From the NCBI GenBank assembly GCA_037146775.1, contig JBAWWL010000001.1:69464-133463 (forward strand): a DNA stretch of 64,000 bases. The letters run 5' to 3'. A program made the position numbers and the translations under genes. This DNA comes from Candidatus Omnitrophota bacterium (GTDB lineage Bacteria; Omnitrophota; Gorgyraeia; Duberdicusellales; 4484-171). Shown one piece after another: positions 3,001 to 27,000 of the stretch (the stretch's first letter is position 1; each line of letters begins with the position of its first letter). The notes under the pieces were generated by a model, which had not been told where the DNA came from, did no database searches, and was given only the letters and a program-made list of their open reading frames with translations.

Positions 3001-6000
3001 CGAAGAATTGGATGAAGAGTTCCTGGCTAAGGTTTTTGATGGTATTGAAACCGCAGGCATTATGGGAAGGACTTTATTGGAAAGATGCATAAGAAAGCCT
3101 GTTTACTCAAAATTAGTTAAGGCGAGAATTAGGCAAGTGCAGATAACCCTCTTAGAGGGGATATTGGGAGATTTTTATTGGGATGTTCGTCCAATGGTCG
3201 CTTACGAAAAAGAGAGGGCCGGTATTGAGTGGCATACGCATCGTTTTAACAAAGATAACCACCTTAGTTTAGTTGACATAATTCATTGGGATAGGCCTAA
3301 TAAAGCAAAAATAGTTGTTACTGAAACAGCAGATGGCCAATCTTACAGGTTAGGGTTATATCGCCCCAAAAGTCGTAACGCCGTTAAGTGTGCGCGTAAA
3401 GATTATGATGCCCTTATAGATAGACTGGGCATAGAAGCTGCAGTGATAAATGAAGAAATACCCGAAACATATTTTTATAAACGTTATCTTAACCTTTTGG
3501 AAAGAGACTCGACTCAAGGTAAGGTTTCCTCGGCGGTAAAAAAATCCCGCATCGGACAAATCGTGGATTCATCAGCTAATTTTTCTTCAAGTCCAATCAG
3601 GAAGAAGCGCAATCAAGGTAAGGTAAAAAGAGATAAATCAACAGAAGAGTTTGAGCGTAAGCTTTTAGAAGCTAGGAGATTTTTGTGGCGATTGTCTCTG
3701 GTAGTTACTATTATTTTTGTGCCGATTATGTTATCGGTTTCAGCTAAAACTGCTTCAATTCTGGGTATAGCCATTGCAACAGTAAGCATTATTCTTGTAC
3801 TTACCAAATATATTCCGGCCTTACGGGCAGAGCATAAATGGGTTCTGGCCAGCGGTGTCAATGCCGCAACGGTTCAAGCTAATTGGTTTATCCGATTAGT
3901 GCGCAGCACCCAGCGTTTATTTACGGCGCTTACCTTGAGGCTAGGCATGGCAGTTGCCCGTTGTACCGGTGCTCGCGCGAAAATAGAAAATGAAATTAGA
4001 TTAAAGATTGCACAAGAGATAGCCGAAACCAGAGCTTCTCTTGAAGCCACATGCCAGGAACTTGCCAGGATACGTCAAGATTTAGATAGAGAAAGGCTGG
4101 AACTAGAGCAGGCGCGTACACGTCTTGATCAGGATAGACGTGATTGGGATAAGGCGCGCGCGGTAAGAGAGAAGGAAGTTACTCAGGCTCGTCAGACGCA
4201 AAGTGCTGCTGACCGGGCTTCCCATGCCGCTTGTGAGGCGCAAGAATCATTAATCCAGGCGCAAACAGAATGGGATAGAAGAAGACAATTAGCAGAAGAT
4301 GGTATTGCTCGGAGAATGCAGCAGCTAGCCTTACAGGAAGAAGAGTTAGTAGAGAGAGAAAGGCGACTTAGCGATGGGCAAGTAGATTTAATAAGACAAG
4401 AAGCAGCATTACAGCAAAAGGAAGAGGATTTAGAAAGGCGTCAACGCGCCGCTCAACAAGATTTAGATAGTCGGCATAACCGCCTTCGTCAGTGGATGCG
4501 ATCTCTCTTACGTCAAGGCAGATTCTTGGATCAAAAAAGAGCCAACGTGGATAGAGAAGAGCGAGAATCATTAGCTAGGGCAGAGGCTCTCAGGGTGCGT
4601 CAGGAACAATTATACCGACAGGAAGAATCGATTCGAACACAAACCAGAGAGCTTCGAGCTATGCAAGATATACTCATGCAGGATTTAGCAAATCTTACCC
4701 GCGAGAGGATTGCTTTAAGCGAAGAGGAACTTTCGCTTTCAGCTCGTTATGCCGAAATTGACTCTAGGATAGCACAGCTTAATACAAGGATTGCTTTGCT
4801 TGAGAGTATGCTTGGCCAGTGGCGCGAGGCAAGAAATTGGTTATTAAGCGAACAGCGCAAGCTAGACGAACAAGAAGATTCTCAAGGTGCGCAAGCAAGC
4901 CGCCTGCAAGCTTTAGCTGATGAGTTAACTCAGCGAGAGCAAGATTTAACCCGAGGTTTTTCTGATCTCGCCGCTTGGTGTACGCAGATGGAAAGATTGC
5001 AACAAGATCTTTCTCAGCGAGAGTCATTGCTTGTTGAGCGGGAAGCCCGGGCGCGAGACATTGAGGAAGGACGTTTACCTAAGGCTACAGATGAACTTAT
5101 CAGATTATTTGTTGAATGGCAGCAAAGAATCGCTATCGACCATACTTGTCTTTTTGAAAGAGAAGGTTTATTAATCCAAGAAATATTATCAAGTCTGCGC
5201 GCTGCAATATCTCTTTCTGCACGTCTTTCTGTGCTGGATTTTGTTCTACGAAACAGAATGCATGAAGCGGTAAATACGCTCTTAATAATTATTGTCGATA
5301 AACTCGATGAATCGTTTACCAGCGCATTATCTTCTACTGAAGAAGAAAACGTTATTTCTTTGTCGCGATTGATTGCGCCGGCATTATTAATCGTGGAGGG
5401 TATATCAGAACTCAGGCCAGCAGTAGATGGGGTTGGTATAGTCATTCCGCAAACATATACCGGTTTCCCCGCACGGATTTTAAGAGCACAGCGTTTTATC
5501 GAGGAGCGTTCGTATAGATTTGCCCAAGAGAGCCGTGATATTACAACAGAGGTAGAAAGTAACGAGGCATCTCTTACTAAAGGCCAAGCCTTAGTAATTA
5601 CGCATCGATTTAGCCGCCGACGCATTGTTTTAGAATGGAATGGTGAAACTGAATTTGTGACTTTTAGTCCAAAGCCGCTGGTTAAATTCACTCTTCATAC
5701 TCCTCTTGGCCTATGTCTTGTAAAGGGCCAGGAGTCGTATTGGTCTCGAGCTCACCAGCACCGCCCGCCTTTATCGCTGCACCAGAGACTTGCTAATCAC
5801 AGAAGACTTACCACAAGTGCTTCGGATACCGCTTCTGGAGTTTATAAAGAAAATGGCGTTGAATGTCTTAATCAGGCGAAAAAAGAAGGATCGTCTATAT
5901 ATATTTTTATAGACGATATGATTGAAGAATCAATGAACCACGGAATTGCCTTTTTGATTGACGAAATGGTGTGGCTATTGCGTTTACACTTATTAAGGAT

Positions 6001-9000
6001 GAGCGATGACTCTCAAACAGTTTTTGTTAGCGTGCATGACCCATATAAAATGTTTGAACAGCCATTAGTTATTACTAATGCTCGTGAGAGTTCATCTCCT
6101 TTAAGACAAATTATCGCTTCCCGGTCAGATTTTAGCGTTGAAGAAATAGCGGCGGTATCAAAAGTTTCTGCTTACGCTTTAGCCGGCCGTGATTTTGACC
6201 CGGCAAGAGCAATGTATTATATACCATTTTTACGCTTCCGGGCCAAAGAAACAGGTTATGCTAATGTGGTTAGTTATGTGCAAGCAATGACAGGGGGAGG
6301 CTCTTTATTACCGAAAGAGAGAACTGTGCGAAGGGAGCGAGATTATCTTTATGGCTGTTTCAATGGCTCTTGGGATGCGCATCCAGGCACATCCGGACCG
6401 GGCTTTGAAGAAAGAACTAAGAGGTTTCTTCTACAGCACATTAGAGATCTTTTAGGGCAAGGCAAGCAAGGAACTGGGAAGGTTATCCTTAAAGATATTG
6501 GTCCAGGCCGCGGTAAAATTATACCTCCGGAATTAGTACCATTGCTAGAATATTTAGCCAAGTTTATCCGTAGCCCTACAGGATGGGAACTGGTTATATA
6601 TGCCTATGATGTGCAAACCAGCCATTTGTTGGATTTAGAAAACCTATTGCTACAGCAACGTTTTCCTTTCGGTACAGTCCGGCTTAATTTTAGATATGCT
6701 GATTTAAGAGATAATAAACAGTTCCGCTATATTTGCCAGGAGCAAAGTGACATAAGTATCTTCCGTAACATCCCTGCGCCGCAAAATGCCCGGCAGCGGC
6801 AATATTTGCGTGATTTATTAAGAAGCCGGATTTCTTCTGGTGGTTTTCTCGCCTATAAAGTTTGTCAAGGAGAAGAACAGATTCTGGGTCCGATTGGAAT
6901 CGATCTCTCAGTTCCGTTTCCGAGTCAAAATCGCTTCAGCTTATTGCCAAAATTTAGTATCGGCAGTTTATTATCGTGGTTGCATGCCAGTTCTAGCCCG
7001 TTACAACAGCAAGTAGAAATAGAGCCGGTTAGGAGCTATCTGGCTAAATTAGTACTTAGTCATCCCGTTATTGGTCGTAACGACAGATTACGTAGTTTCT
7101 TTATGACTGCTATCCACCGAGTGAAAGAATATCCACATTTTGAAAAACTAAATCCTCAAGAAATCATAAGACGACCTTTATTTATTATGTTTTATCCTTC
7201 ACCCAGAAGAGATATGGATAGGTTAATCATTCCATATAATGTTGTTTCTTTAGCAAGTGCATTAGCAGCAAAAGAAATTAATGTAGTCTTGGCGCCCATG
7301 CCGGAAGAGTTTGCTGCTCCGCCATATTATCGTGAAAATCAAGTTAATGTAGAGCGCAGTTATCCTTTCTTGCACGATTGGCTGGTTATGCTCGTTCAAC
7401 GCTATGTAGATATATTCCGGGCATTTGGCTTGAGTAGCGATGAAGCAATGGAAAAAATAAATATCGGTATTTCTATGTTTGATGCCACTTACTTGGAAGG
7501 ATTAGCCTTAATTGAAATTACACGAAGAATTTTACCTAAAATACGTGTATTTGCCGGTGGCCCGCTCGTTTCCGCCGAAGGAGAAGCAAAAACAGCCCTT
7601 AAAGAAATGATGCATAATATGCGTCCTCATGGGCCAAATGTTTTGATTAATGGAGAAGCCGAGGAATTATTACCCGAAGTAGTTTGGAAATTAGATGGTT
7701 TAGCCGCCGATAAAGCTATTAGCGAATTAACCGCTCATCAATTTGATGATAAACAAGGATTAGCTTTAGCTTTTGCTGGCAGATGCTATGAATTTGGCTT
7801 TGAGAGGAAAAATTTTATTCCGCAATTCCGTATGGATACTTTGAGTTTTTATCCGGAATTTGTCGCTGAAGACGTGAATATTCTTTATGTCCCGGAGCGA
7901 GGCTGTCGGCGTAATCCGCGCTGCAGTTTTTGTTCTTTCACTATGGTACCGGGTGTACGTATGCCTCAATCCGAAAAAATCGTGCGTGAATTACGAGATA
8001 TCGACAGAGTTGTGGGCGAGTTTAAACAGGATTGGAGGGCAGGTGTTTTAAGCGGCAACTTTAGAAGTTTATATGATTTTCCGCTTTCAAGAGTAGACAG
8101 AGAATTTGTTTATCAGTTTAGCTGTGCAGTTTTAACAGAAATTACCGGCGATATACAGGCGTTAGGTGTTTTACCTGCTAATATTGCTCACCATCTTAAT
8201 TTTTGCAGGCAATCTGGGTATTTGGCACAGCTTATTCAAATAGCTACCGCGCTACATTTGCACTATCGAGTTGATATGTTGGTTATCCTGACAAACCTGG
8301 TAGCAAGTAATATTCTTTGTGAGAATAAAACACGATTAATCATAGAAGATGATAGCTTTTTACAGAGAAAAAGAATAGCTATGGAAGTAATACAAGCGCT
8401 TAAGACAGAACCTTTAAAAAACATATGTTTAATAGCTTTTCAGGCTCACTTGGCTGATTTCAATAAAGCGGGATTTGAGGGCGATGTTGCGTTAGCTCAA
8501 TTAGTGAGTGAAGTATTAAAAGACCTAGATCAGAGTATAGTAACTGGCTTAGAAAGCGGCAGTAATAAAAATTTAGGCGATTGGGGAAAAGGCTTTGATT
8601 GGCCATGGGCTTACCAACGTATTCGGTGGCTTGACGAGAGAAGTGTCCATGTTGCATTGAATATAATTATTGCTGGAGAAGAAAATGTTCCTCAAGAAAT
8701 AATCGAGTCTTTAGGTAATTTAGCCTATTTACTTTTGAGTACTCAATATGTAACTATTGCCTATGTGGCTCCTTTTGTGATGCCTTTAAGAGGTTCAAGA
8801 CTAGGAAGGAATTTTGACGCACGCAATCATTCCTGTGCTTTAGCTTGCGGTTGGGCAGAGAGGTATTTAGAAAAACCCATAGTTCTTATGGCTTTCCCTC
8901 GCGATGAAGTAGCATTAAGAGTGCTTATAGCGTACGAAGCAGATTTGAGGTCTTGTGCCGGTGCCTCAAGGGCTGAAACAGTAACAATTTTTAGGCGAGT

Positions 9001-12000
9001 CATGCAGGAATTAAGAAACACAGCGCGTCATGTGCAGCACCCGGATTTAGCTTTAATCGAAAGGGTATATAATGAAAAAGAAGAAATAGTTGTTAGCGTT
9101 TCTAGCCCTCTTAAGGGAACGCTATCCCAGTTAGGGGGGGATACCTGGAATATTGTTTCTTCCTCAATAGCGGTGCAAATTAAAAAAATTATTAACGAAA
9201 TAGAAATTAGTAATGATGATTCGCAACAAAAACGAAATGCTGAACAGTTGCAGCAGATTCTTCCTCAGGATACTAACCTAAAGCTGACAACTATCCAGGT
9301 GAGTATATTGATAAATGCCATAAAAAGAGCTACGGAGCATTATGCGCGGTTTAGCCTTGCTGAAGCTTTAGGCCAGGCAATACGTAACAATCCTATTTTA
9401 GTAGAAGAAACAATTATGGTTATCGGCCAATGCCAAGATTCTTCTGAAGTTTACTATTTTTCTCATGCCCTGCAAAAAGCTATGGAAAATAATTTAAGTA
9501 TTAAATTCTCCTTGCCTCAGGCCGGTATCTTGGTTGATGTTATTGTCAAGTTTGCTTATGCGCCTGTGCGTTTATTGCTTGGCCGTTGTTTGTTCCAGGC
9601 GCTGCAAAATGATTTGTTTCTAAAGCTTACAATTACACAAATTAAGTCATTACTTGAGGTCAGCAAGTTACCGGATACGCCGGATGCGCTCGTTTCTGTC
9701 TTAGGTCAAGCTTTCAAAAACGATCCTTCGCTGAAACTTGAGGTACCGCAAGTGCAAATTCTAGTTGATGGGCTTAAAAATGCAAAGCGTGACGATTTAC
9801 GGTGTAGCTTCTCCTTTGCGTTAGGCGTGGCAGCCATCAATCACCATCCTTTAGTTGCAACTATCATTGATGCTATCGATGGCTGCGATGATAATATGGC
9901 ATGTTACCGTTTCGCCAATTCCTTGGACCAGGCTTTAAGCAGCGACCGTTCTGTAGTGCTTGGTGATGATCAGGCACGTGTATTGGTTAAAACGTTAAAA
10001 CGTATATATGCTGCAAGTCATGTGCAGAGAGAAGCTTTACCTGGGCATATCGGAACTTTAGTTCGCTCTACACCGAGGGTTCAGGATGATAATATTGAGT
10101 TTATGTTTGTCACTGTTTTAAGCCGAGCGGTTTTTAATCGGCATGATTTATTTGTATTTTTGAGCGAGGTCATAGAATATCTATTAAGCATAGATATGCA
10201 ATATTTATTAAGACTTGTCGATGCTATTCATGCCGAAATTCTGTCTTTGTGGCTTGTGCCCGATAAAGTTTATGTTTATGTACAACTATTCTTGGCAAAA
10301 ACCGATTTAGTAACTGCAAAAATCCTGCTTTCAAAATATTTCGAGAAGTGTCCGCAAAACAAATTTGCTTCAAACTTAGCCGAGCGCGGTGATTATGACT
10401 GGCCGCTTATTTTAAGCACCATCGAACAGAATCTACTCATGCAGCCATGCTATCGTGATGAATGTGTGGCAGTAGTTACCAGCGCCGAGTACGACCAGCA
10501 GAAGCTCTTGGCGGTGATGCTTAAGCAAAGAGTCTATTGCGCTGATGCCAAACAGCGAGGGGTAGTGCCTTTGCCTGTTCTTTATACCGGAATCACCCTT
10601 TCCAATCTCAGCCAATATCTTGGCTATTATACCTTAGTCTGGGAAGAATTCAGGCAATTCATGGATGTTAACCATGGCTGGTTTCACCAGAATCCCGGCG
10701 CTTTTCTCCAAGATCCGGCAAGAGAAAACCTCAGACCGGCTAAGGCGTCAAGCGCGATAGATGCCAGCACACAAGTTCAGGGATATATCACTACCATAGA
10801 GATCGCTGCTACTAATAGCCAAATAATGACCGCCGCTCATTTTCTGATAGTCTTACTCAAAGAGCGGGAAGCTCTTACGTTAAGCCTTGCGCAAGCTAGA
10901 ATAGTTTTAGCTGCTTTTAGCCGCGTAAGTTATGATACGGAAGCCGGTTACTATCTTGCCTATGTTTTACGTACTGCTCAAGAAAGAAATAGTACTATCG
11001 TCTTTTCGCGTGACGAAGCTAAAATATTTGCTAAAGCCATCGGAGAACATCCGGAAGCCAATACCCGCACTATGCTGTCTTTTGCTTATGGCCGGGCAAT
11101 ATCTCGCGGTCCGCCGGAATTATTAACAGATTTATCCACTGCCCTTGAAGAAATCCAAGATGCCACCGCTATTAGATATTTGGTTTCAGCCTTTGAGGCA
11201 GCGCTAGAAAATAACACTTCCATTATCGTTTCAGGGGAAACAATGGATATTCTAATCAGCGTCAATAAGAGGCTAAAAAGCTCCGATACAACTTTAGCTA
11301 AAGTATTAGGTCAAATAATCATCCGTAACCCCGCATTACGGGAAAAATTGATTAATGCGATTAGGGGAAAGCAGGAGTCAGAGGTACGCTTTAATTTAGC
11401 GTATGCTTTACATAATGCGCTTGACACCAGTATCAGCATTCAACTTCCTGACAATGAAATTAATATTTTGGTCGATATTTTAAGAGGAGATACAAAGACA
11501 GATGAACGTTTATGGTTAATATCTGCCTTAGGCGTGGCTATTGTTAATAATCCTAAGCAGGTTGCTTTATTGATTACCGCTATTACAGATACAAGAGAAA
11601 ACAAAAAACGCTATCATTTAGTTTCTTCCTTGCATGCCGTCCTTAGTAAGGGAAAAGCCATTTCGCTTATATATACGCAAGCCGCTGTTTTATTGGAAAT
11701 TATTAAAGGAATTAATGAAGTAGATATACGTTCACGTTTTGCTGCCACTCTGGCTTTAGCTGCGGCTGACAATCAAGAGCTTGTCGCGCTGCTTAATCAG
11801 GCGCGAGATTATCTTATAAATATAAATGATTCTGATAGCATTATCGAAATCGTTAAGGCGCTTACTTTCAAAGCGCTTACCCATCAAAAAGCTGCCTGGT
11901 TTACGGTTCAGGAATTTTATTTCTATTTAATATTTTTAATGAGAAAGGCGCGCATAAATGAAGTAAAAGATCTTGCTAAACAATATCTTACTGCTTACCC

Positions 12001-15000
12001 CCGTACAGATTTTCATACCCTTGAGGCTACGCAAGAACAATCCGATTGGGTGCTTATTTTAAGTACTATCGATCGCCCTTTGCTCATGCAGTCATGTTAC
12101 CGCGATGAATATGTAGCGGTAGTAGTGAGCACCGAGCACGAAGAGCAGAAATTTTTAGCGGTAATGCTAAAACAAAGAATTTACTGTGATGATGCGGCTA
12201 CCAGAGGGGTGTTACCCGCGCCTATTCTTTATACCGGCATAACTCTCTCAAACCTTAATCAATACCTGAGTCATTACACTTTAATCTGGGAAGAGTTTAA
12301 GAGGTTTATGGATGCTAACTATGTCCGGTTCCACCAGAATACCGGCGATTTTCTTCAAGATCCGGCAAAAGAAAATCTAAGGCCAGTTAAAGCGTCAAGC
12401 GCGATAGAGCTAACTTCAGGGGAATGGGTAAAGAGATTCTTGGAAGCTGAGACAGAAGAAAAAAAGCTTGGCGTAATTCGTGAGCTAGGAATCGCTGCTT
12501 CTCAAGGCAGCCAACCCGCTGCTGAGGCACTTAAGGAAATAATTACTTCTCAAGTCTCTGAAAGTATAAAAAAAGCAGCAATCGAAGCATTGGCAGAGGC
12601 TATTGAGCGTGGCAGTCCGTGCGCCGTCACCGTCATGGAAGAGCTCGCTGATACTTTTAAAATAATAATCACCTCCCAAGCTTCTATGAGCATAAGCGCA
12701 ACAATTAGAGCATTAGGGTTAGCTGCTTCCCGTCGCAGTAAACCTGCCCTTGCCGCCATAGAAGAACTTGCTGATACTTTGGAAGAAATCATCGCCTCTC
12801 ATTCTGAAGGCGCAAAAGAAGCAGCAATCAGGGCATTAGGAACTGCTGTTGAGTGTGGCAGCCAAACTGCTATAACCGCCATAGGAAAGTCTTTTGGTGC
12901 TTTAAAAGGCGTTATTGCATCTCAATCTCATGAGATTTTAAAAGAGATGGCAAAGTCATTGCTTAGAGACTTTTTGCACAGTGATCAAAAATTTTTGGTT
13001 AAGGAGGCTGCCAAGGGTGAGATGGACTGGCCTATTATTCTAAACAATATCTATCAAAGTTTGCTCATACAAGAACAATACCTTGGTGACTATGTAGAGG
13101 TGGTAGTCAGCGCCGACCATGAAGAACAAAACCTTCTGGCAGTGATGCTAAAGCAAAGAATCTATTGTGATGATGCAGTTACCAGGGGAGTGCTGCCTGT
13201 GCCTGTTCTTTATACTGGAATAATTCTCTTAAGCCTCAGTCAATACCTTAGCCATTATACTTTAGCCTGGGGAGAGTTTAGGAAGTTTATGGATGCCAAT
13301 CATGCTTTGTTTCATGCTCAACCCGCCATGTTTAGCCGGGATCCGACAAGAGAAGAGCTGAGGCCAAGAAAAGATAGATCATCGAGTATACTAGAAAATA
13401 TACATAATGGTCCAAGCCCCCTTTTTTATTCTAGTCATAATTTGTTGGGGGCGTCAGTACAAAGTGCCTCCAGTCCAACCATAGATTATTCAAAGCTTTT
13501 AGATCCATCCGGACGCATTACCCCGGGATTATTATTTCAAACTGATGATTCTTATGTAACACACGCGAGAGGATTATTAACTCAAGCTACCGTTGATCCG
13601 CTTGCCTTATGTTGGGCAATTCTTACTTTAACGGTTAAATTTTTCCCTGACGGCTTAAACTGTTTTAATGTTTTGCCGCTTAGGGCAAGTTTATTAGCGG
13701 AGGATTATCATGGGTTATCCCAAGACCATAACTTCTCTTTTATGCAAAGATTATTAAATCAGGGGGTTGAGATAATTAGGGACTATAAGGCTATAACAGG
13801 TTACCAGAGTGAATTCGTTTCCAGGTTTCCGGAAATTATAATAACAGCATCTCAAGAGCATTTAGGTTATGTGCAGGGTAACCTGAATAATTTGCGAGGG
13901 TTACTAAGAATTGCTCCTTTTGTTGAATTAATAGACGGTTTAACATGGAATGCCGGACGGAATAATTTCGGAACACTTTTCCGGGATCAACTGTGCGTCG
14001 CTATGAGTAATGCTTCTGACTACGCAGGTAATCTTGAATTATTCGCCAAACTGACAGCAGTTCTAAAACAATCTAGCTCACCACTCGAAGAATACACAAC
14101 CAAATCCCTGCCTTGCCGGCAGGCAGGCCACCTCCGGGGTGGGCTTTGGTTGAAAAGCAAAATTCACACCAGTTCGCCACTTGCTCAATATCCGGATTCG
14201 GAGACGATGTATCAAGATATAAAAACATTTATTGAGCGCATCGATCCATATTTACATTATCAATTAGAACAGTCTTTATATGAGCGTCCGGGAAGGCTTG
14301 ATGGTTGGCCAATAGTTTGTATTACCAGTTCTTATGTCCTTGGTAACATTTTAGCCAGGTATTTTGGGGATAAATATGGCTTAGTTTTTGGTGGTTACGC
14401 GCCAAACAGAATTGATTTTATAATGACCGAAGCGGAATTTGTGGAGGTCGATGGTTATGTAAGTTCCGGTGATCAGGGAGCGTTGATGTTGGTTTTGGGC
14501 GGCCGCGACTATGCCTTAATTAATGTGATGTACGGTTTAATCGATCCAGATTTTTGCTGGCGCACGCTGGTTGATAGAATTGATGATTACCCGAGTAAAG
14601 AAGAATTACTCAATAGGCGCAAATTCATCTGGATTGACGAAGAAACAAGGAGAGAGTCGGGCGGCGATTCTCACGGAGTTGCCAGATGGGCCTGGGAGGG
14701 CGCCTGGACGATTGCTGATAAAATTGACTGGGAGAATGTTCCCCAGACAGAACCCATAAAAACTATCAGTGGTTTATTTAGGCCATTTTGCGGCCCTTCC
14801 AGTTCGCATACTGCCGGAGCTAATAGAATTGCTACTTCCGCAAGAGAAGTTTTCTTTGCGCATCAGCAAGATTTAGGCGAATTAACCGAAATTAATGTTA
14901 CGGTTTACGATTCATATGCGACCACCGGTACAGGCCACCAGACGGCAGAAGCTTTAATTGCCGGTTTGCTGGGTATGCGTATGGATAATCCTATGATGTG

Positions 15001-18000
15001 GAACTCTTTTTCCGAGGCACACATGAACAGAATTATTGAAAAAACAGGATGTATTAGCCAGTGGCATGGCGCGATAAATATTGGTAACAGCCAGGATGTT
15101 TTGGTTGTACTGGATAGTGATGTTAAAACCGTAACGAAACATCCCAATACCGCCATTATTACGTTTAAGGGTGCAAAGGCAGTGCTTGTGTGTGTCGGGG
15201 AATCCCTGGGTGCTGCCGAAATCGCTATTACCGCCAAAATAACAGATGTTACTAACTCAAAAACAGATGAAATTGCTGTTCAACCCGATCAAGCCGCGTA
15301 CGTTATCCGTGGGCACCATGATTTCTTAACCGCAACTGGTTTACTCAAACTTGCAGCAAGAAAGAAATTAACCATGGTCGATTTTCTTATTGCTGGCGAA
15401 GGTAATGTTTTAGGTATATCTCGTGGTGAGCTTTATGATAATTTAAGGCATATTTGGACAATAATGTGCCAAAGTATTGAACGGGGAATACACTCATCAG
15501 AGGCTACGCTCGCGCATTATGCCGGCGATGTTGCCGTTAAGATGCATGCTTATGCCACACAGAAGAGCGCCTTGCCCTATGATTGGTACTTAAGAGCGGC
15601 TGTGTATGCTATGGCTATAGCTGAAGAAAATGCCCGCGGACATTTGATTGTGGGTGCACCTACTGGCGGTTCTTGCGGGATTATTCCGGCAGTTCTATAT
15701 AGTTATGTAGAAATTATGCAACAACATGGACCGATTGAAGAAGATAAAATTCTTAATGCACTTATCCTTGCCCAGGCTATTGGTAGAATTATCCAGCATA
15801 ATTATACTTTAGCTGGATCGGTTGGGGGATGCCAGGCTGAAATTGGCAGTGCTACTGCCATGGCTGCCGCAGCCCTTATGTACTTAGAGGGCGGAACAGA
15901 TGAACAAATACTTAATGCTGCAACTTATGGTCTTTTAACTTGGTTAGGTACAACTTGCGAGCCGGTGGAAGGTTTTGTAGAAGTTCCTTGTATTGATCGT
16001 AACGGCTTGGGTGCTGCATTGGCTATCGCTAGCGTATTAACAATATTTGCCAAAGAAGAGGTGCCTGTTTTTAATCTTGCAGTTAGCCACATGCAAACCG
16101 CGGGGGCCAGTATACCGGCAATTTTTAAGGAAAATATTGCCGGAGCCTTGGGAACATTTACCGACAAAACTCTCGCTAAAACAATTGAGCGTTTACGTAA
16201 AGGTTTATCTCTTGCTTATCGTACCTATGTTCAATTTAAGACACACTTAAGTCTTTCTGCCTGGCGGTTCTCGGGTGGCGTCAAAAAGAGCGCATTAGAA
16301 AGTGTTTTAGAATCAAGGCCATATTATAACGGATTTTTCCCAAGGGCTCTCTATAACTTAAAAGTTTTAGCAACCGGCAGGTTTGGAAGTTCTTTGAATG
16401 ATCCTATCGCCGACGCAGCATATCAAGCAGTTGCAGAAATTATGGATATGCCGGAGATTGATTTTGCGGTCATCACGCCTTTTAGGAAAGCGCTATTTGA
16501 GCATATTGGTTATCCTCAGCTGAATATCCGCGGTCAATTAGCGGTATCAGCTGGTTTTAGTGCGGGAGTGCTTACTCATCTTTTGGGAGCTTCAAATATC
16601 GACTTGGTCCAGAATGCATGCGCTATCTCCACTGCTAATATGCTTGGAGCATTTTATCCGACGGAAGTTCCGCAAGCACCGTTACGCGCCGCAGCGCTAA
16701 TGAGTAGCTATCTTTCGGCAATAGGGATTTTGAGCGGAGTAAAACAACGGATAACCTTCCCTAAAGTGCTTGGGTCTCTTGAGCGAGTTAACAATTATCC
16801 AGCTTGTCAGGCTTGCCAACTTGCTTGTGGCCGTCATGGTAATGAGAAGGCCAGTTCAGCTTTAGATGATAGGAGTGGTCAGAAAGTAGCGGCTCAAAAA
16901 ATCCCAGCATACGATTACCAAGAAGTTTTGCGTATAATTGATTATCTTGATAGCACGAGATTAGAAAGTAATCTAAGGCAAAAGCTTGAGAGTACTGATA
17001 CCGAACCAGTATGGATAGCAGAGGATATTTTGAGGGACGCTGCAAGATTTGGGCGCATAGCTTCACGGGTTAAAGCTCTTTATAAACGAACGTATGGTAA
17101 GCTGCCTGATTTTAGAATAGCGGTCGATCCTTCGGGTGAAGGCATGTATGGCGCATACGAAGAGGATGTTATCGCCAGCTTTTTTGACCATGTTGGCGTA
17201 GCCATCGAAGATGATATGCTTGAGGTGGGAAGCGGCGATGGTAGTATTTCAGATTTTATGGCGCACAAATTTGGTATTAGGGCTACCGGTATTGAGGTGT
17301 GGCCCCCATACTGTGAATATGCTAATTTTCTTAGAGATGAACTTGTAAGAAGAAAATTTAATAAAGCAGGTACGGTCAGGTTTCTAAATAATAATTTTGC
17401 GGACGAAAGCGTTGATTTTTCACAATACTCATTAATATATTATGCGGCACTTGGCGCGAGAAGGAAAAGTGAGCTTGCTGCTAAATTAATTGGTGTGAAA
17501 GTAAAAAGTAAGACACTAATCCGCGGTTCCTGCGATGAGTTAGTGGAAGGTATTTTAGCATCCCATCCCGATTTTGCATTAAGAAAACTTGAGATAGAGC
17601 ATAACGGAGAACTTACCGGCATCAAGGCTAGGCTTTATACCAGAGTGGCAGTGACAAGTTACGAGCCTACTCTAAATGCCAAAGTTTCTTCTTCTTTATC
17701 AGTTCTTACTTCAGGGGTTGAGGCTTTTGTCCGTTGGCATAACTATGGTTTGCGTGATCCGCGTTTAGCCATGGAGCCGCTTGAGATTATCTTTGAGGAA
17801 CTAGAGTACGAAGGGCTTTATTTTCTCCGTGACGACCATGCTTCGAAGGTGACCATTCCCGTCAATAGTTATACACGCTTCATTATGGCTGAACCACAAA
17901 GGTTTCAGTCTTTACTTGATGATATCCTTTTTGACTGGCATATGCGTCAGACCCGCAAAATTTTAATTAACCAGCTTGGTTTTGAGAGGGACGAAATTTT

Positions 18001-21000
18001 ACGCGATTATATAATGTATAGCGAAAGTGAGCTAGCGCATATTCATTGTGCATTAGAATTAACAAGATTTTTAATGAGCGGAGTAAAAGCGATTGATCTT
18101 GGTTCGGGCTTAGGAGGGAGCGTGGGGTGGATGTTTAATTGTGGCGCTGACGTCCAGGGTGTGGATATTTTAGAGGAAAATAACCGCTTAGCAGTGCAGA
18201 ATGATCAGAGATTGGAAGGGAGGTTATATACTGGACACATTGTCCGGCTTCCGCAATTTGCCGAAGGAGTTTTTGATATCGCCCTATGTCTTGATATTAT
18301 TTATCTTATGCCTTTACGTTTGATATTCCTTGCTGTGAAAGAGGCTGGGCGAATTCTTAAACCAGGCGGAAAGCTCGCTATTCATTCTCGTTATTCATGT
18401 GGCATGACTGAACAAACACATTTAGTTTCTTTTAAACAATGGGAAGACATTTCTCAAAGAGCCGGCCTTGAGCCCGAAGGAAATGATCTAAAATATATTG
18501 GTAATGACGGATTTATTATCTTTGGCCGTAAGAGACTTGATGTGTCTTTATCGCCAAGTGATTGCCGTCCATTTTCTCAATGTTCAAGCCCCACAGTTTC
18601 TGTTTCCGAAACACTGAGCGTCATTATTTTGCAAGATATGTTTAATACAACAGCAACAACGGATTTTCGCCAAGCTCATCATCCGGATTTAGCAGAAATC
18701 GAAGCCATGTATGATGCGAAAGCAGGCGTGTTAGGCGCTTATGCCAGTTCCTCGGTTGATTTCATAGAGCCCAAACCTCTTGGGCGGTTATTGTTTCATT
18801 CGGTCATGAATAGCTCTATTTCATTTTCTGCTTCAAGCGCTATATCTGCGTTACAGCGTTCATTTAGAGGGCAGACGCCGGTTTTATGGCTTGAGCTAGG
18901 CATGTCTCAAGGAAAGTATTTTGCCAAGCTTGGTGAGATTAGCGAATTAGCAATGGTTTTTAGCAAGGTAGCTAATAAAAAAGGAAAATACTCCGAAGAA
19001 GGGAAATATCTTGTCGAAGTTTTAGACGATGCCCTGAAACATACAAAAGTAAAAGGCAATCCTGTTTGGTTAAAGGCAACTAAGAGCTTTTCTGATATGT
19101 TAAAGGGTGCCTTTGCCGCGCCTGTTGAGGGGAAATATCCCCTTTATCCTTGTACCAATCTTGCCCATCAGGCTTTGATCGAAATGGTGCGGCAGTGGCC
19201 GAAACGCGAACGGCACACGCACGTGACCATGTCTATTTCACCATTAATGGTAATAGGTGAACTTAAAGAATTGCAATCGTTACCAGGTTATCGAACAGCT
19301 CTTTTAAATAAGTTTAAGCAATCAATTTCTAATCAGCCAAAGAAGGAAGACGCGCATAGAACATTTTATGAATTGCTGCAGAAGTCTAGTGATTGGCGTG
19401 ATTTGCCGGAAGATGAAGTATGGGAATTCATGAAAGACACGGGTATTCGTGATGATTATTGGATGGATTTACTTAAGCAAGATGATTACATAAAGGTATT
19501 AATAAGGCTTATCGTTGGGGTTGTCAGACAGAATTTTACTGACGGTATTACTGATCTGGAGTTACGTTTTAATCCCTTCAAGCCTTTTGGCGATAAAACC
19601 GTTGGCTGGAAAGAAGTAAAGACTTACCTAGAAAAATTAACCGAAGCAATTAAAACTGTCGAAGGAGAGGCTGACGCGGCTTTTGGACGCAGTCACCGGG
19701 TTTCCTACATGTTTTCTTTTAATAGAAGAGGCATGAGAAGAATTGATATCGCAAAAAAAGGTAAACACTTCAAAGAGGTTAGAAAAGAATGGAAAAGAAA
19801 ATTCTTTGCCCTACGTGTTTTAAGAAGAAAATGTGATCCTGAATTAAAAAATCGTTTAAACGGTATTGATATTTCTGGGGGTGAGCCTTTTGATGGTTTA
19901 GCTAAAGTTACGGTTGAGGATATTACGCGGGATTACGCTTTAATTTGGTTAGCCAACCAATTAAAAAAATTAAAAGAACAGGGTTATGAGATAAGCATGC
20001 ATTTGGGCGATTTTACTGCTCGAAGGCCTCCGGATGATCTTGATGGCCATATTGTATTTATCAGGGCTCATCTTGAAGCTTTAGAAGGTATTGTTGACAG
20101 AATAGGCCATGGTAGGATGCTTACTCCCGGAATGGTCCCTGTATGGGGTAAAGATAGTAAATGTTCATGGAAGAAGGTGTCTGAAACCTTAAGCCTTTTA
20201 GACGATTTCAGACAGAAGTATCCCCAGGTTATTATTGAAACAACACAAGAAACAGATACACAGGATTTAGTAATTTTACGGGAAAATTATCCCAACTACT
20301 GGTGGTATGAAAATGATTATAAAATGGAGATAGTATATGGTTCGGATGGTCTTTATACTAATCCGCCTACTACTTTGTCGCAGTGGCTTGTGCGATTGAT
20401 GTTGGCATCGCCTACACCCATGTATCCTTCGCAAGGAAGAATTAATGGCATTACCGTTAAGCAAATGCACACTGCGGTATCCAGTCCTGTATTGCCAAGA
20501 GAAAGATTGGGCCATGCCTTGCCGGGTATAGTCAACAAAGTTTCGATAATTAATGGAATTACCTCTCGCGGACCGCCGGAGCAATTTGAAAGTGTAACCA
20601 GCTCGCCCGCTACCGCTAAAGTAGATGTCAATGAAGTTGTGCGTGATGCGCTTTCTGTCGGCCAAAAAATCCAATTAGCATTTACGGAAAACCAATTGCG
20701 GGTTGACGTGCAATATTATAGAGGCCGCTTGCCGAAACTTTCTATAGACCGCAACAAATTACAATCTGCCATTTCAGAGGTATTCTGGAACGCAATAGAT
20801 CATTCCCCTCGAGGAGGAACAATAACCGTAAGAGTATCTTTGGAAGGTCGTAATCCCGCCAAAAGGAACGTAATAGTTTTTATTTTTAATCAAGGCGTGG
20901 GTGTAGACATAGCGACAATAGTGCGGTCAGCTCTTGGTTTAGGAGTGATCTCAGTCGATATGGTCAGCCAGCTTTCTATGCAAGATAAGCTAAATTTGGT

Positions 21001-24000
21001 TTTTGAAGAACATGTTACCACGAAGGAAAAAGAGATTGGTGGCTTAGGTTTATTTCTTGCCCGCCAAGACATTGAAGGCTGCGGCGGTACCATTGAAATA
21101 TATTCTACACGAGGTGTTGGGGTGTTAGTTGCGATAGTTTTGCCTGTTAAGACAGGAGCAAATTTAGTGATTTCGTCGGATAAAAAAATAAGTTCGCCTA
21201 TCGCAACGTATCAGAACCATTCTTTCAGGCAGCATTGGCCGGTAATAGATGAAGAAAAGGAGCGCAAACAAACATTCGAGCTGGTTTTTAAAGTATTTAA
21301 CCGCGCTGGCTGGTTTATTCCGGATTTAAGAGAGGCGCAGGCCTTATGCGAAGAAGCGCTTGAACTTTATCCCGCAGAAATTGACTTCTTAGAGATTTTA
21401 GCAGAGATTTATTATCGTTTAAGAGAATACAGACGCATAGTTACCTTGCTTGAACCGGTCGTTGCAATTGATACTGCATATTTACGCTGGTTTGAATGGC
21501 TTGCTAGGGCGGAGGAGAAATTAGATAACGATCACGGCGCGATTATGTATCGTGAAGCGATTGCACAAAGAAATCCTTCTGATAGTGGCAATAACCATCG
21601 TTTGAGTTCGTTATATTCCCGCACGCAAAATCGTAAAACCCGTAGCTCCTCACCAAGCGTAGTTTTAGATAATTTTTTTGCCGTTTCTAGTCCCCTGCAA
21701 CAAACTAAACCCTGGAAGGGTCAGGAGTCAATTACGCAAGTGGCCGAGCGAGCGCTTGAATTATTTCGTAGCCAACCTTACCGTAGTATTTGGCCTGCGG
21801 ATGCTCATTTGATAATAGATACAGGATTCTCCGAGCCGCAAATACTTAAATATCGCAGCCAAATAAGGCAGGAAGTTTTACGTTTAGCTAGCCTCCAAGA
21901 GGATTATTACCGGCGCGTTTCGCTGGAATTAAGAATCATTTTTGCTAACCAGTGTCAACTCAAACAAAAAGGAAAAGGTTGTGTTGACCCGCTGCTTTTG
22001 GCCGTATCTATATTAACTGCGGCAAGAGACCGGCTGCAGCCTACAGAATTAATCCGAGAAAATTTAATTTTACGCTCATCCCGAGTGGCCGCGATGCTTA
22101 AACGGGCTTATGATGATGGTAATAAAGATATTGTCATGGCCAAAGAACAATTACTGCATACAAACACCGTACTTTTTGAGTATATTAATTATTGGTTGGC
22201 TAGGCTATTCTTAGAGGCACGTATTTTTGATATTGAGCAAATTATTGTTTCTTTTAACCAAAAGGGAATTAAAAGCGTGCAGCTGGCAAAGGGAAAAGCA
22301 ATTGAAGAGCAAATGATGCAGGAAACCACCAGAAAACATGTCATTACTTTATTTGAGGCTATTGCCAGGCTAAAAAGTAGCGATCCCGATTTGTGTGGTA
22401 TTGTTTTGTTGAATGCCAGGGATGCGCAAAGATTGACCGGCGTTTGCACTGTAGCGCAGCGCGAAACCTGGGAACCGATGAATGACTTGCTCACGCAGGT
22501 ATTTTCAGCCGGCCCGGAAAAATGTGGTCCGGATAACGATCCTTTACGTAAAGCCGCAGAGCATTTACGCGCAGCCGCTGATATCAAAGGAAAAACCTGG
22601 CGGGTGGCCATTGCCGGACAGAAAAAAGGTTACACGCATACCCACACCGCAGTTGCGCAAGGGATAATTCTAGCCGTAGAAAAGATAGTTGTTGCTGAGC
22701 ATAGGGTTGAGCCGCGCACCTTTACTTTTACCCGCGCCAATATAGAAGAACTCTTGGAAAAATCATGTTTTCATCATCTCGAAGACGGCGGTTTGAGCGT
22801 TTTGGCGTCAGTGAAGCAGTGCGTGGATTACGCGCTTTCTGATGTTATACCGGAAGACCAAAACAGCGACCAGTATTATTGGTATTTATTAGGCCAAAGC
22901 TTAAGAAGGCTTCGGGCGAATATAGTTATTGTTGAACAAGGCTGGTCAGATGCGCGTTTACAAGGAGAAGAAGGTATAGAGCATTTAATACAATGCTCTG
23001 CTAGGTTTGCCTGCGATTTATTCTTACGCGAACCGCAGCGTAGTATCTGGCCAGGTGCTGAGAGGTTGATTCAAGAAACCGGACTTAACCCTGCGCATAC
23101 GTACAAATATTCAGAAAGAATAGAAGAAGAAACATTGATGTTAGCAAAAGCTGCGCCAGCGCAAAGCCGGCGTAGCCTCATCCAACGTATTTCTTTCGCC
23201 ATTCATTATTATCGCATGAATAAACTTAAACTTGCCGGAGTGAAGGGTTGTACTGATCCTTTGGTGGTAGCAAGAAAGATAATAGCTGTTACTGCCAGAG
23301 AAGTACGCGCTGGAAGAATAATTGCCGAAAAAGAAATAGATTTAAGGCGTAATCATATTGAAGTCGCTGCGCAATTAGGCAGAAACCTGCTTTCTAAAAA
23401 ACATGCCCATGAATTGATATGCGCTATACATTTCTGGATGGTATTATTTTTCCAGGAACCTTCCGTATATGGGGTAGAAGAGGAAGTTAGTGCACTTACC
23501 TCAAGAGGCGTTGAGAGATTGCGCATTCAATTTATCCGTAAAAACGAAGAGCCTGTCCAAACAGCAAAAACTTTACATCACCTTGAGACAATACTGGCTT
23601 TAGCAATATTGGCCCCCGAAACAGATGTCGTTCAGGCAGTAGCTGGGGTTACGACACAGGTTGTATTAGCTGTTGATGCGCCTGAAGTTATAATACCTGT
23701 TGATCTAGGGACAGTTTTAGAAGATAGTGTTTTACCACCGTCCCCTGCAATCGCTCCGGCTTTAGGCGCTGCTGTTCTTGTAACTGAATCTTTTAGTGGT
23801 CAGATTCCCGCAGAAGTCATCGCGGCTAAACCAACCCTGGAAACTCAAGTCTTAACAGAACCAGCCACCGTATTAGCTGCAGTTACCAAGGATGAAGTTC
23901 GTGTTCCAGGGCAAGCCGGCATAGTTCCTTTAACTAGCCAACCGCGTTTAGTGGCAATAAATAAGCCGGAAAACGTTATGGTTGGCAAAAAATTTACGAT

Positions 24001-27000
24001 TATAGTTGAAATTTTAGATGTACAGGGAAATCCTGATGTAAAAGTGAGAGAGAAAATTACTTTTGAATCAAGCGATAGTGAAGCAAGCTATCCCACTAAA
24101 CCATATTATTTTACAAAACAAGACCAAGGCCAGCATGTTTTTAGTATAACTTTTGGAACTGTGGGGAGACAATGTTTGATTATCGCAGATTCCCACGATC
24201 ATTCATTAACTTTAAGTTTTGCGGTGGAGCCTACCTTAGAGCAAAGAACCGCATCTGAAGTTGAGCCCGTAGCGCATGTCCATGAATTTGTGAGCATTTC
24301 TCCCGAAACTCAGGCACAAGAGAGGTTATCGGGAGAAAATTTAAAAATTATGCAGGCAGGTATTGAGCATTTGCGTAGAGGCTGCACGAATATTATTATT
24401 ATGGGGAAAATTAAACTGATTGAAGAAGCCTTAGTTATGATTCATATCATGCAAGCCTTTACTCGAGGCCTCTGGAGTAGAACGGAAATTCGTTATGGTG
24501 GAGGAATGACAGAGGCGAATGTAAGAGAAGCATATCTGGCAATGCGTCATGATATTGAGGCCGGCGAAACCGATAACGTAATGGAAGGCACTCGTATCTC
24601 AGGTATTTTTTCAAGAATTGAGGTAATAGAAGATGGATTAAACCGCTCTATTGGGGTATTGCCGAGATCCATGGATTCGCTTGAACAGGTGTATTCAGTA
24701 ACCTTAGAATTACTCCGCGCAAGGGTCCCGCATCGAGAAGGCGAAGAAGACCCGATTTTAAATTTTATGTGCACTCTGTTGCTTCTTGAGGACCGCCGCT
24801 TACGTGATGAAGAATTAACCGTTCAACTCCAGAGAGCTAAAGAGCGCGTTATTGAAATAGCGCTTGAGGCCTATGGTCATGCTAGGTTAGCTATTGCAAG
24901 CGGTAATTTTTTGAAATTAGATAATTTACACGTGGCACTTACAAAAAAATGTGAAGAACTGAAAGCTTCTTATCAGATAGAGATGCGCGGATCATGGGCC
25001 AGTATTGAAAATATCTTTGAGCAGGAAAGAATAGAGATTTCTGAAGCTAATCTTGCTGGAGCTTTGGGAGAATTTATCGGAGATTCCATAGAGGTAGATC
25101 TAAAAATGACCTATTGGTTTTTAGCTATCCGACGTAGTTGGCGCCAAGAATTATTTCTTTTTGTCAGAAGCAGGGGTGATTTTATCCCAGGGTGTGTAAA
25201 TATAATGGAAGCGCAACCAAATCGTTCCGCAAAAAAGAAGAAATTACATCAGCCGGTTACTACTAATCAACTTATTGTTGTATCCGGAACAGAAGGCTTT
25301 AGCTATTTTCAGGTTTATAAACGCACTCTTTTAGTCAGTGATGGCAGTAAGGTGAGGTTGTTTAGGTTGGATGATCAAACTGCGGTTTTTGAACAAGTAT
25401 TGATTAATCCTTCGCAGTCCCAAAAAGGAGCGCCTTGCGGGCAAAAATTGGGGATTTCTGCGAAGGAGGCAGCCACCGGCCTGCCGCTTGTTACGACGAG
25501 TCCGCGGGGTTCCGCTGGTAAAAATGATATTCCGGAGTTAGTAATATCTCAAGATATTCCGCCGCAAAGGCGTAAAGACTTATTTGAAATCACCCTTGTC
25601 GGTGGAGGGATCTTGAAACTTGATGAAAACGGAATTATCCCTGCACTTAAAAAAGCGGAAACTCGGCACCATTTAATGCAGGACGAAGCTTCTTCCCCCA
25701 TATCTTACGAAAAGGAAAATTTTTCGCGCGCGCTTAAATTACCAAAGCCAATGCGGGTTATACGTATTGTTTCGGCAATAGCTATACCTATAATCGCAGT
25801 TATACTTTCCGTATATTTTGGCGGCTATTATATTTTATTAGTGGAATCAGGATTTTTTAGTTCCTTAGTTACCCAGACGATTGTTGGAGGTTTATCTCTT
25901 GGCTTTGGGATGTATATTGAACAGTCTTTGCGGGGAGCACTCCTGAGTCGCACTAATCTTGGAAAAATAATGCGTTTGACATTATTCGGCGGGCTCTATT
26001 TGGCAATTTTTGTCTTCGGAGCGTGGTATTGGTTTTTAAATAATTATGTTCCCAGTGTATTCTGGAAAGTTTTCCTTGACCTTACCTTATTTGCTTTTTT
26101 TGTCGTCATTCCCTGCAACTTTTTTATCTATAAATATTTAGTTTGCCTGAACCGGGAAAAAATGGATTTGTGCGAGACTTTAAAACGCGCATTACAGTAT
26201 TTTGTTTTTAACGCTCTTTGGTGGGGTTTATGGCTTGGAATAGGATGGGCCTATTATCCTCAGTATATTGTTCTTATCGCGGTTAATTCCCAGATTCTTT
26301 GGTCAGGATTTATGATGTATTGGCTTGAATCTTGGATTGAGGCAGCACATAAAGAAAGTAAAGCAGGGAGTGCTGCTAAAGATTTACGCCAAGGAAATAG
26401 ACAAAATCCAACCGCTAGTTCCCCGCATACATCTTCCTCTCCGCTTTCTTTAGGTATACCAGAGTTTTCATTGCCTTTATTTAATGGGCCGGTGTTTATC
26501 AATAAACAGCATGTATATACGGAGACTCCTCCAGACATAGATATGGATGATTTTTTAAGCCGAGCTCCTAATTTACCAAGCTTACAGGCTTTACGTTTAT
26601 CCCGAATGCTAGAGAAGGCAGGATTTGCTGGTGATGATGTAGTGGTTAATGGGCAAAGGCGTATTGTGCTTATGGGTGGGATAGTTGAGCTCTGCCTGGT
26701 AAAAGAATTTGCGCGTATAGCCATGAGAGCTGCCCAACAAGAGGAAAAAGTAGAAGTGCTAATGTCTTTGGACACGCTTGTGTCCGATGAGTTGATATTT
26801 GTTGGAAACGAGAGGAAATTTCTAAAGCGTTATTTTTCTATCACCGATTCCGAAAGCCCCTACATTACAATCTTAAATATCTTGTGGCTTAATTACGCTA
26901 TTGTAATTTTGCAAAGCGATATGGTAATTGTCGGAGAAAATCAAAAAATAGTCATCCGTATTTTTTCTAAAAAAGAAGATTTATTTGAATATATAAGAGA

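Follow-up and report, generated by a model that had tools for sequence, protein, structure and literature searches.

The DNA analysed in this work (the window) is a stretch of 64,000 nucleotides (nt) from contig JBAWWL010000001.1 of a Candidatus Omnitrophota bacterium, and a single giant open reading frame (ORF) runs through all of it. The element under study is an iron-sulphur (Fe-S) L-serine dehydratase (SDH) module encoded in frame within this ORF. Frame +2 has zero stop codons from nt 2 to nt 64000 (21,333 codons, off both ends of the window), compared to 827-1901 stops in each of the remaining five frames. The GC content at the three codon positions (GC1/2/3 of approximately 0.51/0.39/0.35) was uniform across all 6-kb blocks, indicating that the giant ORF is one genuine coding region. 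Residues (aa) are numbered by the codons of this frame. The ORF, the module and its key residues are:

2..64000, + strand: giant ORF, at least 21,333 aa, open at both ends; a multi-enzyme mosaic with transmembrane-like clusters
14741..16189, + strand: Fe-S L-serine dehydratase module (aa 4914-5396), with SDH_beta at aa 4925-5056 and SDH_alpha at aa 5140-5377
14936..14938, + strand: His4979, the counterpart of the catalytic base His61 in Legionella, within TGTGHQT; His in 46/46 aligned homologues
15674..15676, + strand: Cys5225 in APTGGSCG; Ala in 59/62 free-standing homologues, Cys in 3/3 embedded copies
15830..15832, + strand: Cys5277, predicted [4Fe-4S] ligand equivalent to Legionella Cys343; invariant column
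15956..15958, + strand: Cys5319, predicted [4Fe-4S] ligand equivalent to Legionella Cys385; invariant column
15989..15991, + strand: Cys5330, predicted [4Fe-4S] ligand equivalent to Legionella Cys396; invariant column

A previous reading of the letters alone by a model (the sequence-only reading) had placed a complete Fe-S L-serine dehydratase at nt 14760-16210, with four SdaA motifs in native order, inside a >21k-aa protein. It had proposed profile searches, an alignment of the cluster cysteines and a structural comparison as checks. The stop-free frame bears out the giant ORF; the outcome of the other comparisons is given below.

Identity of the serine dehydratase module

Both Pfam domains of the family were detected far over their cutoffs: SDH_beta (PF03315) scored 55.1 bits (cutoff 26) and SDH_alpha (PF03313) scored 179.5 bits (cutoff 26.4), the latter covering profile positions 22-253 of 260. 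A hidden Markov model (HMM) trained on 62 free-standing homologues only revealed exactly one SDH module in the whole ORF (aa 4930-5384, envelope 4914-5396; 324.8 bits, E=5e-101). The envelope corresponds to nt 14741-16189, so the coordinates first proposed were essentially exact. A phmmer search against the PDB sequences retrieved the Legionella L-serine dehydratase 4rqo (E=1.4e-43, chain residues 24-470 of 476).

The four SdaA motifs are all exact and in native order between nt 14792 and nt 16006, as had been claimed: GPSSSHT at nt 14792-14812 (aa 4931-4937, in conserved columns), APTGGSCGIIPAVL at nt 15656-15697, GGCQAEIG at nt 15824-15847 and CEPVEGFVEVPCIDRNG at nt 15956-16006. In the alignment of the 62 homologues, GPSSSHT, P-T-G-GS-G, GGCQAE, the ligand cysteines and the catalytic His are invariant columns. 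Cys343, Cys385 and Cys396 are the cluster ligands of the Legionella enzyme, and His61 is its catalytic base (PMC12647591). Once the 18-residue tag offset of the 4rqo chain was corrected, the three ligand cysteines proved to be kept on proper alignment, as was the histidine.

The predicted structure matched as well. The AlphaFold2 model of the module reached a predicted local distance difference test score (pLDDT) of 80.8 and a predicted template-modelling score (pTM) of 0.84, and a second model was mostly >85 in pLDDT over the module. The best Foldseek match was 4rqo_A (E=2.4e-22, template-modelling (TM) score 0.79). The module is a complete two-domain (beta plus alpha) member of the Fe-S L-serine dehydratase family (EC 4.3.1.17), in frame in the giant ORF.

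Synonymous codon usage in the module is native (24th percentile of same-size ORF windows), its GC3 is 0.350 compared to an ORF mean of 0.355, and no in-frame ATG, GTG or TTG is present within aa 4860-4935, just before the module. By these results the module is not a recent insertion, a chimera or a hidden separate gene.

The same cassette in other large proteins

When genome, viral and metagenome contigs were scanned for close relatives of the SDH segment, none was confirmed, and a word-indexed protein search with the module retrieved free-standing enzymes only. No part of the window itself turned up in any collection. A 3201-aa query of the word-indexed database returned just two partial relatives, both without an SDH. 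By contrast, an exhaustive phmmer search with the module and its flanks detected two large proteins, P0123 (2280 aa, 519 bits) and P0124 (2476 aa, 515 bits), compared to 207 bits at most for free-standing L-serine dehydratases. In both proteins the match is internal and the alignment continues for ~200 aa beyond the SDH module. We call the module plus this extension the SDH cassette; the cassettes of P0123 and P0124 are 40-48% identical to that of the giant ORF. In the three-way alignment, identity was 47-48% over the module, 55-57% over the alpha domain and 26-30% over the extension.

P0123 corresponds to NCBI MFA7677223.1, which carries the automatic annotation 'L-serine ammonia-lyase alpha subunit, partial'. 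The other members of its cluster come from Omnitrophota metagenome-assembled genomes (MAGs). Searching with the extension alignment revealed two loci, L005 and L006, both in Candidatus Omnitrophota MAGs; the NCBI names concur. Omnitrophota are very small bacteria that may be predators. The frame in L006 (JAQUWY010000009.1) is open over 14,568 nt (nt 3-14567, at least 4855 aa), begins at the contig edge and continues into a 57-kb contig. The SDH cassette lies downstream of a 3-dehydroquinate synthase module in P0123/L006 and downstream of unannotated sequence in P0124, and its flanking cassettes differ among all three carriers.

A second cassette is common to the window and L006 (window nt 1238-2452, aa 413-817; L006 aa 2939-3343). 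It is 49% identical, has no Pfam match and is the best-conserved part that the window shares with L006. The order of this cassette and the SDH cassette is reversed in L006 compared to the window. Thus, relatives of two window cassettes occur in Candidatus Omnitrophota MAGs at 40-49% identity. The L006 frame also encodes low-molecular-weight phosphatase and helix-turn-helix DNA-binding domains.

P0124 (L003 nt 7488-14918) and P0125, a 3824-aa multi-enzyme protein, are complete proteins that resemble each other at the N-terminus (28%) and the C-terminus (36%) and carry different enzyme cargo in between. The pattern points to a family of cassette carriers of medium size whose termini are conserved. 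A 2420-aa helicase-like gene adjoins P0124. Separately, many of the top free-standing matches are 720-920 aa long and their SDH alpha match starts only at residue ~440-700 (P0126, P0130, P0131, P0133, P0135, P0137, P0147, P0158 and P0223), indicating that larger SDH fusions exist outside giant proteins.

Divergence from free-standing enzymes

The sequence-only reading took the module for a housekeeping enzyme, and this did not hold. Against TIGR00720, the NCBIfam equivalog for L-serine ammonia-lyase, the module scored 222.2 bits (cutoff 345.1), and it remained below the cutoffs of the other equivalogs too. Identity to any free-standing enzyme was ~30-39%. At columns that are at least 95% conserved, the module keeps 60 of 77 residues (78%, 17 deviations), compared to a median of 99% in the free-standing homologues.

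Several deviations lie beside the predicted active site. Gln4980 directly follows His4979, where 46/46 aligned free-standing homologues have Gly, and Glu5320 directly follows the ligand Cys5319, where 62/62 homologues have Asp. Substrate or kinetics may differ, since residues that are invariant in the free-standing enzymes are changed next to both His4979 and Cys5319. The three embedded copies have a common signature (GHQT, APTGGSCG, TCEP and G-LGTF-DK); the change of Asp to Asn5358 is found in the giant ORF copy alone. As the three copies carry identical signature substitutions, the deviations are selected subfamily features and not decay. Judged from these alignments, the SDH module belongs to a distinct embedded subfamily and is not a plain housekeeping SdaA.

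The cassette extension and the neighbouring segments

The segments on either side of the module are:

14183..14740, + strand: unannotated segment of ~190 aa (aa 4728-4913); no junction motif (see below) between it and the SDH module; absent at this place in P0123 and P0124
16190..16792, + strand: extension of the SDH cassette (aa 5397-5597), conserved, helical by prediction; sits where free-standing enzymes have the C-terminal Cys tail
16865..17683, + strand: DOT1-like class I methyltransferase cassette (aa 5622-5894; Pfam DOT1, 23.4 bits), adjoining the SDH cassette downstream

Pfam detected nothing in the flanks aa 4401-4913 and 5397-5733, even at E<=1. The extension has 34 columns invariant between the giant ORF, P0123 and P0124. 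It has no Pfam relative, its profile (A2) gave no match among the PDB sequences, and its model was of low confidence (pLDDT 30-57). A candidate for a degenerate second SDH_alpha copy, noticed by eye at aa 5508-5560, stands as a lead and no more: the unfiltered homologue HMM sees one module, BLAST finds nothing, and hhalign matches the extension only weakly with the SDH alpha core (E=5e-4; probability of 30%), without the Cys ligands.

The C-terminal Cys of the Legionella enzyme is the fourth cluster ligand and an intrinsic inhibitor ('tail-in-mouth') (PMC12647591). Many relatives of the Legionella enzyme share this tail, but it is not universal in the family; a C-terminal ...GGLAVSxxLC was present in 26/38 free-standing homologues. 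The tail is missing in all three embedded copies, and the extension contains no conserved Cys.

The DOT1-like cassette (junctions 5617|5895) is 65% identical to aa 2988-3242 of P0125 and has an internal paralogue in the giant ORF (aa 16769-17053, also delimited as nt 50315-51082, aa 16772-17027; 30% identity). By these matches it is an independent cassette with relatives of its own.

Junction peptides delimit the cassettes

The motif [ASTV]-S-S-[PSA]-[LIVAQMF] is present at 62 sites in the giant ORF, compared to 2.4 ± 1.6 in shuffled sequences. The sites extend across the whole window (e.g. aa 251, 399, 811 ... 21109) and form a sharp five-residue signal with polar flanks. Within the 2245 aa of Pfam domains the motif is absent (0 vs. 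6.5 expected, P about 0.001), and each recognised domain has a site on either side. The sites draw on all six Ser codons, which makes a DNA-level explanation unlikely; AGC-TCG-CCG is over-represented. The junctions nearest to the SDH module are:

14168..14182, + strand: upstream junction TSSPL (aa 4723-4727), the nearest before the SDH module
16850..16864, + strand: downstream junction ASSAL (aa 5617-5621), which aligns with a DNGG junction of P0123

In P0123, (S/F)(L/F)DNGG occurs seven times (0.04 expected), and two of the copies bracket exactly the SDH module plus its extension. In L006, (S/F)LDNGG occurs 15 times, with the same bracketing as in P0123 and at positions equivalent to those of the window's motif. 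The double glycine of SLDNGG is reminiscent of C39-type processing sites. The DNGG motif is absent from the window, which uses a different junction peptide. The shared cassette at aa 413-817 is likewise bracketed by SSP-type sites in the window (399|811) and by DNGG in L006 (2927|3342). For 17 homology segments, the segment ends lay a median of 16.5 aa from the nearest junction site, compared to 108 aa for random positions. The coincidence of motif and homology boundaries identifies the giant protein, at the level of its sequence, as a string of ~60 shuffled cassettes joined by a lineage-specific peptide.

This cassette and junction-peptide organisation is not described in either of the two giant-gene papers considered here (10.1101/2023.11.21.568195; 10.64898/2026.06.07.730766). 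West-Roberts et al. 2023 (10.1101/2023.11.21.568195) reported that missing cleavage-point information blocked their analysis, and whether giant proteins stay whole or are cut was left as an open question. The 62 junction peptides are candidate processing or linker sites and, as such, offer concrete candidates for the cleavage points. We regard this organisation as a more consequential lead than the SDH fusion, which is itself moderately interesting.

A tentative extension of this idea is that the giant ORF encodes a polyprotein, the junction peptides being processing sites that release the ~60 cassettes as separate enzymes, one of them a serine dehydratase of 700-890 aa without the Cys tail. 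We find this possible, though we would not expect it to be the case. If it were true, the giant Omnitrophota genes would be operon substitutes built by cassette shuffling. The SDH cassette would then represent a fifth architecture among the Fe-S L-serine dehydratases, with Cys5225 or the extension acting as a cluster guard in place of the C-terminal Cys; the count presumes a division of these enzymes into four types.

Comparison with known systems

Single-chain L-serine dehydratases (Legionella 4rqo; E. coli SdaA, SdaB and TdcG) resemble the window module in the SDH_beta to SDH_alpha order, GPSSSHT, the catalytic His, the three Cys ligands and the fold. They are free proteins of ~455 aa, whereas the window module is internal to the giant ORF and has the 200-aa extension in place of the Cys tail common among them. 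The module further differs from them by the changes Gly to Gln4980, Ala to Cys5225 and Asp to Glu5320 and by its sub-cutoff equivalog score. The L-cysteine desulfidase CyuA also has three Cys ligands and [4Fe-4S] elimination chemistry, with a proton-abstracting Cys23/Glu25 dyad (PMC12647591). CyuA (9fyi) belongs to the same superfamily and its three Cys ligands are equivalent, but it was a much weaker fold match to the module model in Foldseek (TM score ~0.6, 11% identity), and the window module has an SDH_beta domain of the L-serine dehydratase type, with His, instead of the dyad.

The giant proteins described from Omnitrophota include the 'Archaeovorins' (West-Roberts et al. 2023, 10.1101/2023.11.21.568195) and the 'multi-enzyme metabolic cluster' class (10.64898/2026.06.07.730766); most are sequence singletons. 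The window ORF is like the multi-enzyme giants in its enormous length, its many enzyme Pfams with none dominant, its scattered transmembrane helices, its Methyltransf_11, HATPase_c, HAD_2 and radical-SAM content, its embedded central-metabolism enzymes and its mostly singleton sequence. SecA-DEAD and/or C39/S8 domains are common, not universal, in these giants. Pfam detected no SecA-DEAD-like, C39 or S8 peptidase domain in the window's 21,333 aa, and the ORF extends past both ends. The sequence-only reading had called a fused metabolic enzyme highly unusual, which is overstated, as central-metabolism domains in Omnitrophota giants have already been described (10.1101/2023.11.21.568195; 10.64898/2026.06.07.730766). 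Serine dehydratase is not mentioned in the text of either paper, and their supplements hold no searchable SDH entries.

Polyvalent proteins, which have 2-15 domains and are encoded on phages and conjugative mobile elements (Iyer et al. 2017, PMC5512222), also combine many unrelated enzymatic domains in one polypeptide, and the window ORF contains a weak ART-PolyVal match (22.6 bits) and an M23 peptidase. They belong to mobile elements, whereas the relatives of the window cassettes lie on Omnitrophota MAG contigs. A phage or plasmid polyvalent-protein origin was considered and rejected: a tblastn search of 50,697 phage and 72,556 plasmid records, with 2700 aa as the query, retrieved ordinary sdaA only, and the viral contig scan was negative.

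New here are the architecture, within a known enzyme family, and the type of cargo, within a known class of giant proteins. To our knowledge, Fe-S L-serine dehydratases have been known only as free one- or two-chain enzymes. The cassette is a form of its own, conserved, devoid of the tail and confined to very large proteins, and it would extend the repertoire of the Omnitrophota giants to amino-acid catabolism.

Proposed function and alternative explanations

The giant ORF contains 18 transmembrane-like segments (19 residues with a Kyte-Doolittle mean of at least 1.8, a hydropathy criterion and not a dedicated predictor), 15 of them in four clusters. The SDH cassette lies in a stretch without such segments (aa 1272-8585) that has membrane flanks rich in lysine and arginine at both ends and also carries domains dependent on S-adenosylmethionine (SAM) and ATP. 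The flanks and these domains make a cytoplasmic location of the SDH cassette likely, as insertion of the Fe-S cluster would also require.

We favour, with slightly better than even confidence, the explanation that the module is the catalytic core of a conserved cassette within a giant, membrane-anchored multi-enzyme protein of the Omnitrophota type, and acts as a serine deaminase of the cytoplasm, either tethered to the membrane or freed by proteolysis. The cassette would consist of the [4Fe-4S] L-serine dehydratase module and the helical ~200-aa extension, one of ~60 units shuffled between proteins. Cys5277, Cys5319 and Cys5330 would bind the [4Fe-4S] cluster, leaving the fourth iron free for the substrate. 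His4979 would serve as the base in the dehydration and deamination of L-serine, or of a very similar analogue, to pyruvate and ammonium. The reaction would take place on the cytoplasmic side of the membrane, with the enzyme either tethered or released at the junction peptides. Without the auto-inhibitory Cys tail, regulation or protection of the cluster would have to work differently, perhaps with the help of the extension or Cys5225. The serine would be imported from outside, possibly from a host or prey, and would feed fermentative pyruvate metabolism. Omnitrophota have been described as fermentative, and as lacking serC and serB for the most part (10.64898/2026.06.07.730766), and PPDK and glycolytic domains have been reported in their giant proteins (10.1101/2023.11.21.568195), so conversion of imported serine to pyruvate is a coherent role.

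Some observations weigh against this explanation. The module falls under every NCBIfam L-serine ammonia-lyase equivalog cutoff, and Gly to Gln4980 beside the catalytic His and Asp to Glu5320 beside a ligand Cys are changes at positions invariant in the free-standing enzymes. The topology derives from hydropathy and the positive-inside rule only, with the N-terminus of the protein lying outside the window, and some multi-enzyme giants are predicted to face outward (10.64898/2026.06.07.730766); in that orientation, cluster loading would be difficult for an oxygen-labile Fe-S enzyme. Finally, the Legionella enzyme is dimeric in the crystal (PMC12647591), while the window module is an internal domain.

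The alternatives that concern the chemistry of the module differ in how they account for its unusual residues and neighbours. In the sequence-only reading, the SDH was coupled to neighbouring modules in one pathway, supplying pyruvate or ammonia to radical-SAM and methyltransferase modules or modifying Ser/Thr. The DOT1-like methyltransferase cassette does lie directly downstream (aa 5622-5894) and radical-SAM/B12-like regions occur elsewhere in the ORF, but the radical-SAM matches are weak, their 21 bits falling short of the cutoff, and their position at aa 17332-17692 is ~12,000 aa (36 kb) and several transmembrane-like clusters away (at least 13 such segments). Moreover, P0123/L006 and P0124 have no Pfam-detectable methyltransferase or radical-SAM domain, the SDH cassette is their sole similarity to this region of the window, its neighbours differ in each carrier, and the methyltransferase cassette has SDH-free relatives in P0125 (65% identity) and P0121. 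We consider the coupling unsupported and very improbable. Rather unlikely, in our judgement, is a neofunctionalised dehydratase that applies the same Fe-S chemistry to another substrate (L-threonine, L-cysteine, D-serine, phosphorylated or acylated serine, or peptide-bound serine). The embedded copies share GH-Q-T, PTGGS-C-G and C-E-P at invariant positions near the active site, score below the equivalog cutoff, and have lost the Cys tail and gained a conserved extension, all of which would fit such a change. Nevertheless, every residue known to be needed for serine dehydration is kept, the N-terminal domain has the His of the SDH_beta type and no CyuA-like Cys/Glu dyad, and the substitutions either are of a conservative kind, as with Asp to Glu, or have no known effect. 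The 17 deviations at columns at least 95% conserved, the missing Cys tail and an internal position that may make dimerisation impossible could also indicate a pseudo-enzyme, catalytically dead and kept for structure or binding. This is improbable: all ligand and catalytic residues are kept in three copies that are just 47-51% identical to each other, and the alpha domain is the best conserved part (55-57%), which is the mark of purifying selection on the active site.

Two further alternatives concern where the cassette acts and whether it is real. The cassette might be an exported effector that destroys serine, or makes ammonia and pyruvate, at the cell surface or inside prey. Omnitrophota giants have been proposed to take part in predation (10.1101/2023.11.21.568195), the giant ORF includes an M23 peptidase and a weak ART-PolyVal match, and the outward-facing prediction for some multi-enzyme giants would agree with export. 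We give this little credence, as the cluster of an oxygen-labile [4Fe-4S] enzyme has to be assembled in the cytoplasm, the surrounding stretch has SAM- and ATP-dependent domains and positive-inside flanks, and the phage and plasmid searches gave only ordinary sdaA genes. Lastly, an ordinary sdaA could have been joined to its neighbours by misassembly or sequencing error. Nothing was found in favour of such an artefact, and 64 kb are stop-free in one frame, codon-position composition is uniform with native synonymous codon usage in the module, and the embedded cassette recurs in independently assembled contigs from three sources; there is hardly any chance that the fusion arose in this way.

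Other features of the window

The Pfam content of the giant ORF comprises ~12 different domain types, many of them enzymatic and none dominant. It includes Methyltransf_11, HATPase_c, HAD (HAD_2), protein kinase, guanylate kinase, M23 and RmlD, plus weak matches to radical-SAM/B12 and ART-PolyVal. Long unannotated stretches and transmembrane-like clusters separate these domains. An Rfam search of the window gave no matches, and the window carries no marker gene. The only complete ORFs of at least 150 aa, at nt 5014-5691 and nt 26260-26775 on the minus strand, are antisense inside the giant ORF and are probably spurious.

Several cassettes are repeated within the ORF. Three tandem paralogous cassettes of ~550 aa each occupy nt 9098-14074 (aa 3033-4691); their segments are 40-57% identical and have no Pfam match, and two of the three end in an extended junction, QDPA(R/K)ENLRP(A/V)K-ASSAI. 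No homologues were found for an internally duplicated module at aa 15437-15846. A duplicated cassette of ~245 aa with three transmembrane-like helices is present at nt 25688-26434 (aa 8563-8811) and nt 35036-35764 (aa 11679-11921); the copies are 47.6% identical, and their limits coincide exactly with junction sites. Further on, at nt 36881-37639 (aa 12294-12546), lies a separate cluster of seven hydrophobic helices.

The ART-PolyVal match (ADP-ribosyltransferase of polyvalent proteins; its 22.6 bits are below cutoff) falls in a 178-aa junction-delimited cassette at nt 55190-55726 (aa 18397-18575), and the M23 peptidase is located further along, at aa 19707-19793. Together they hint at effector-like cargo in the giant ORF.

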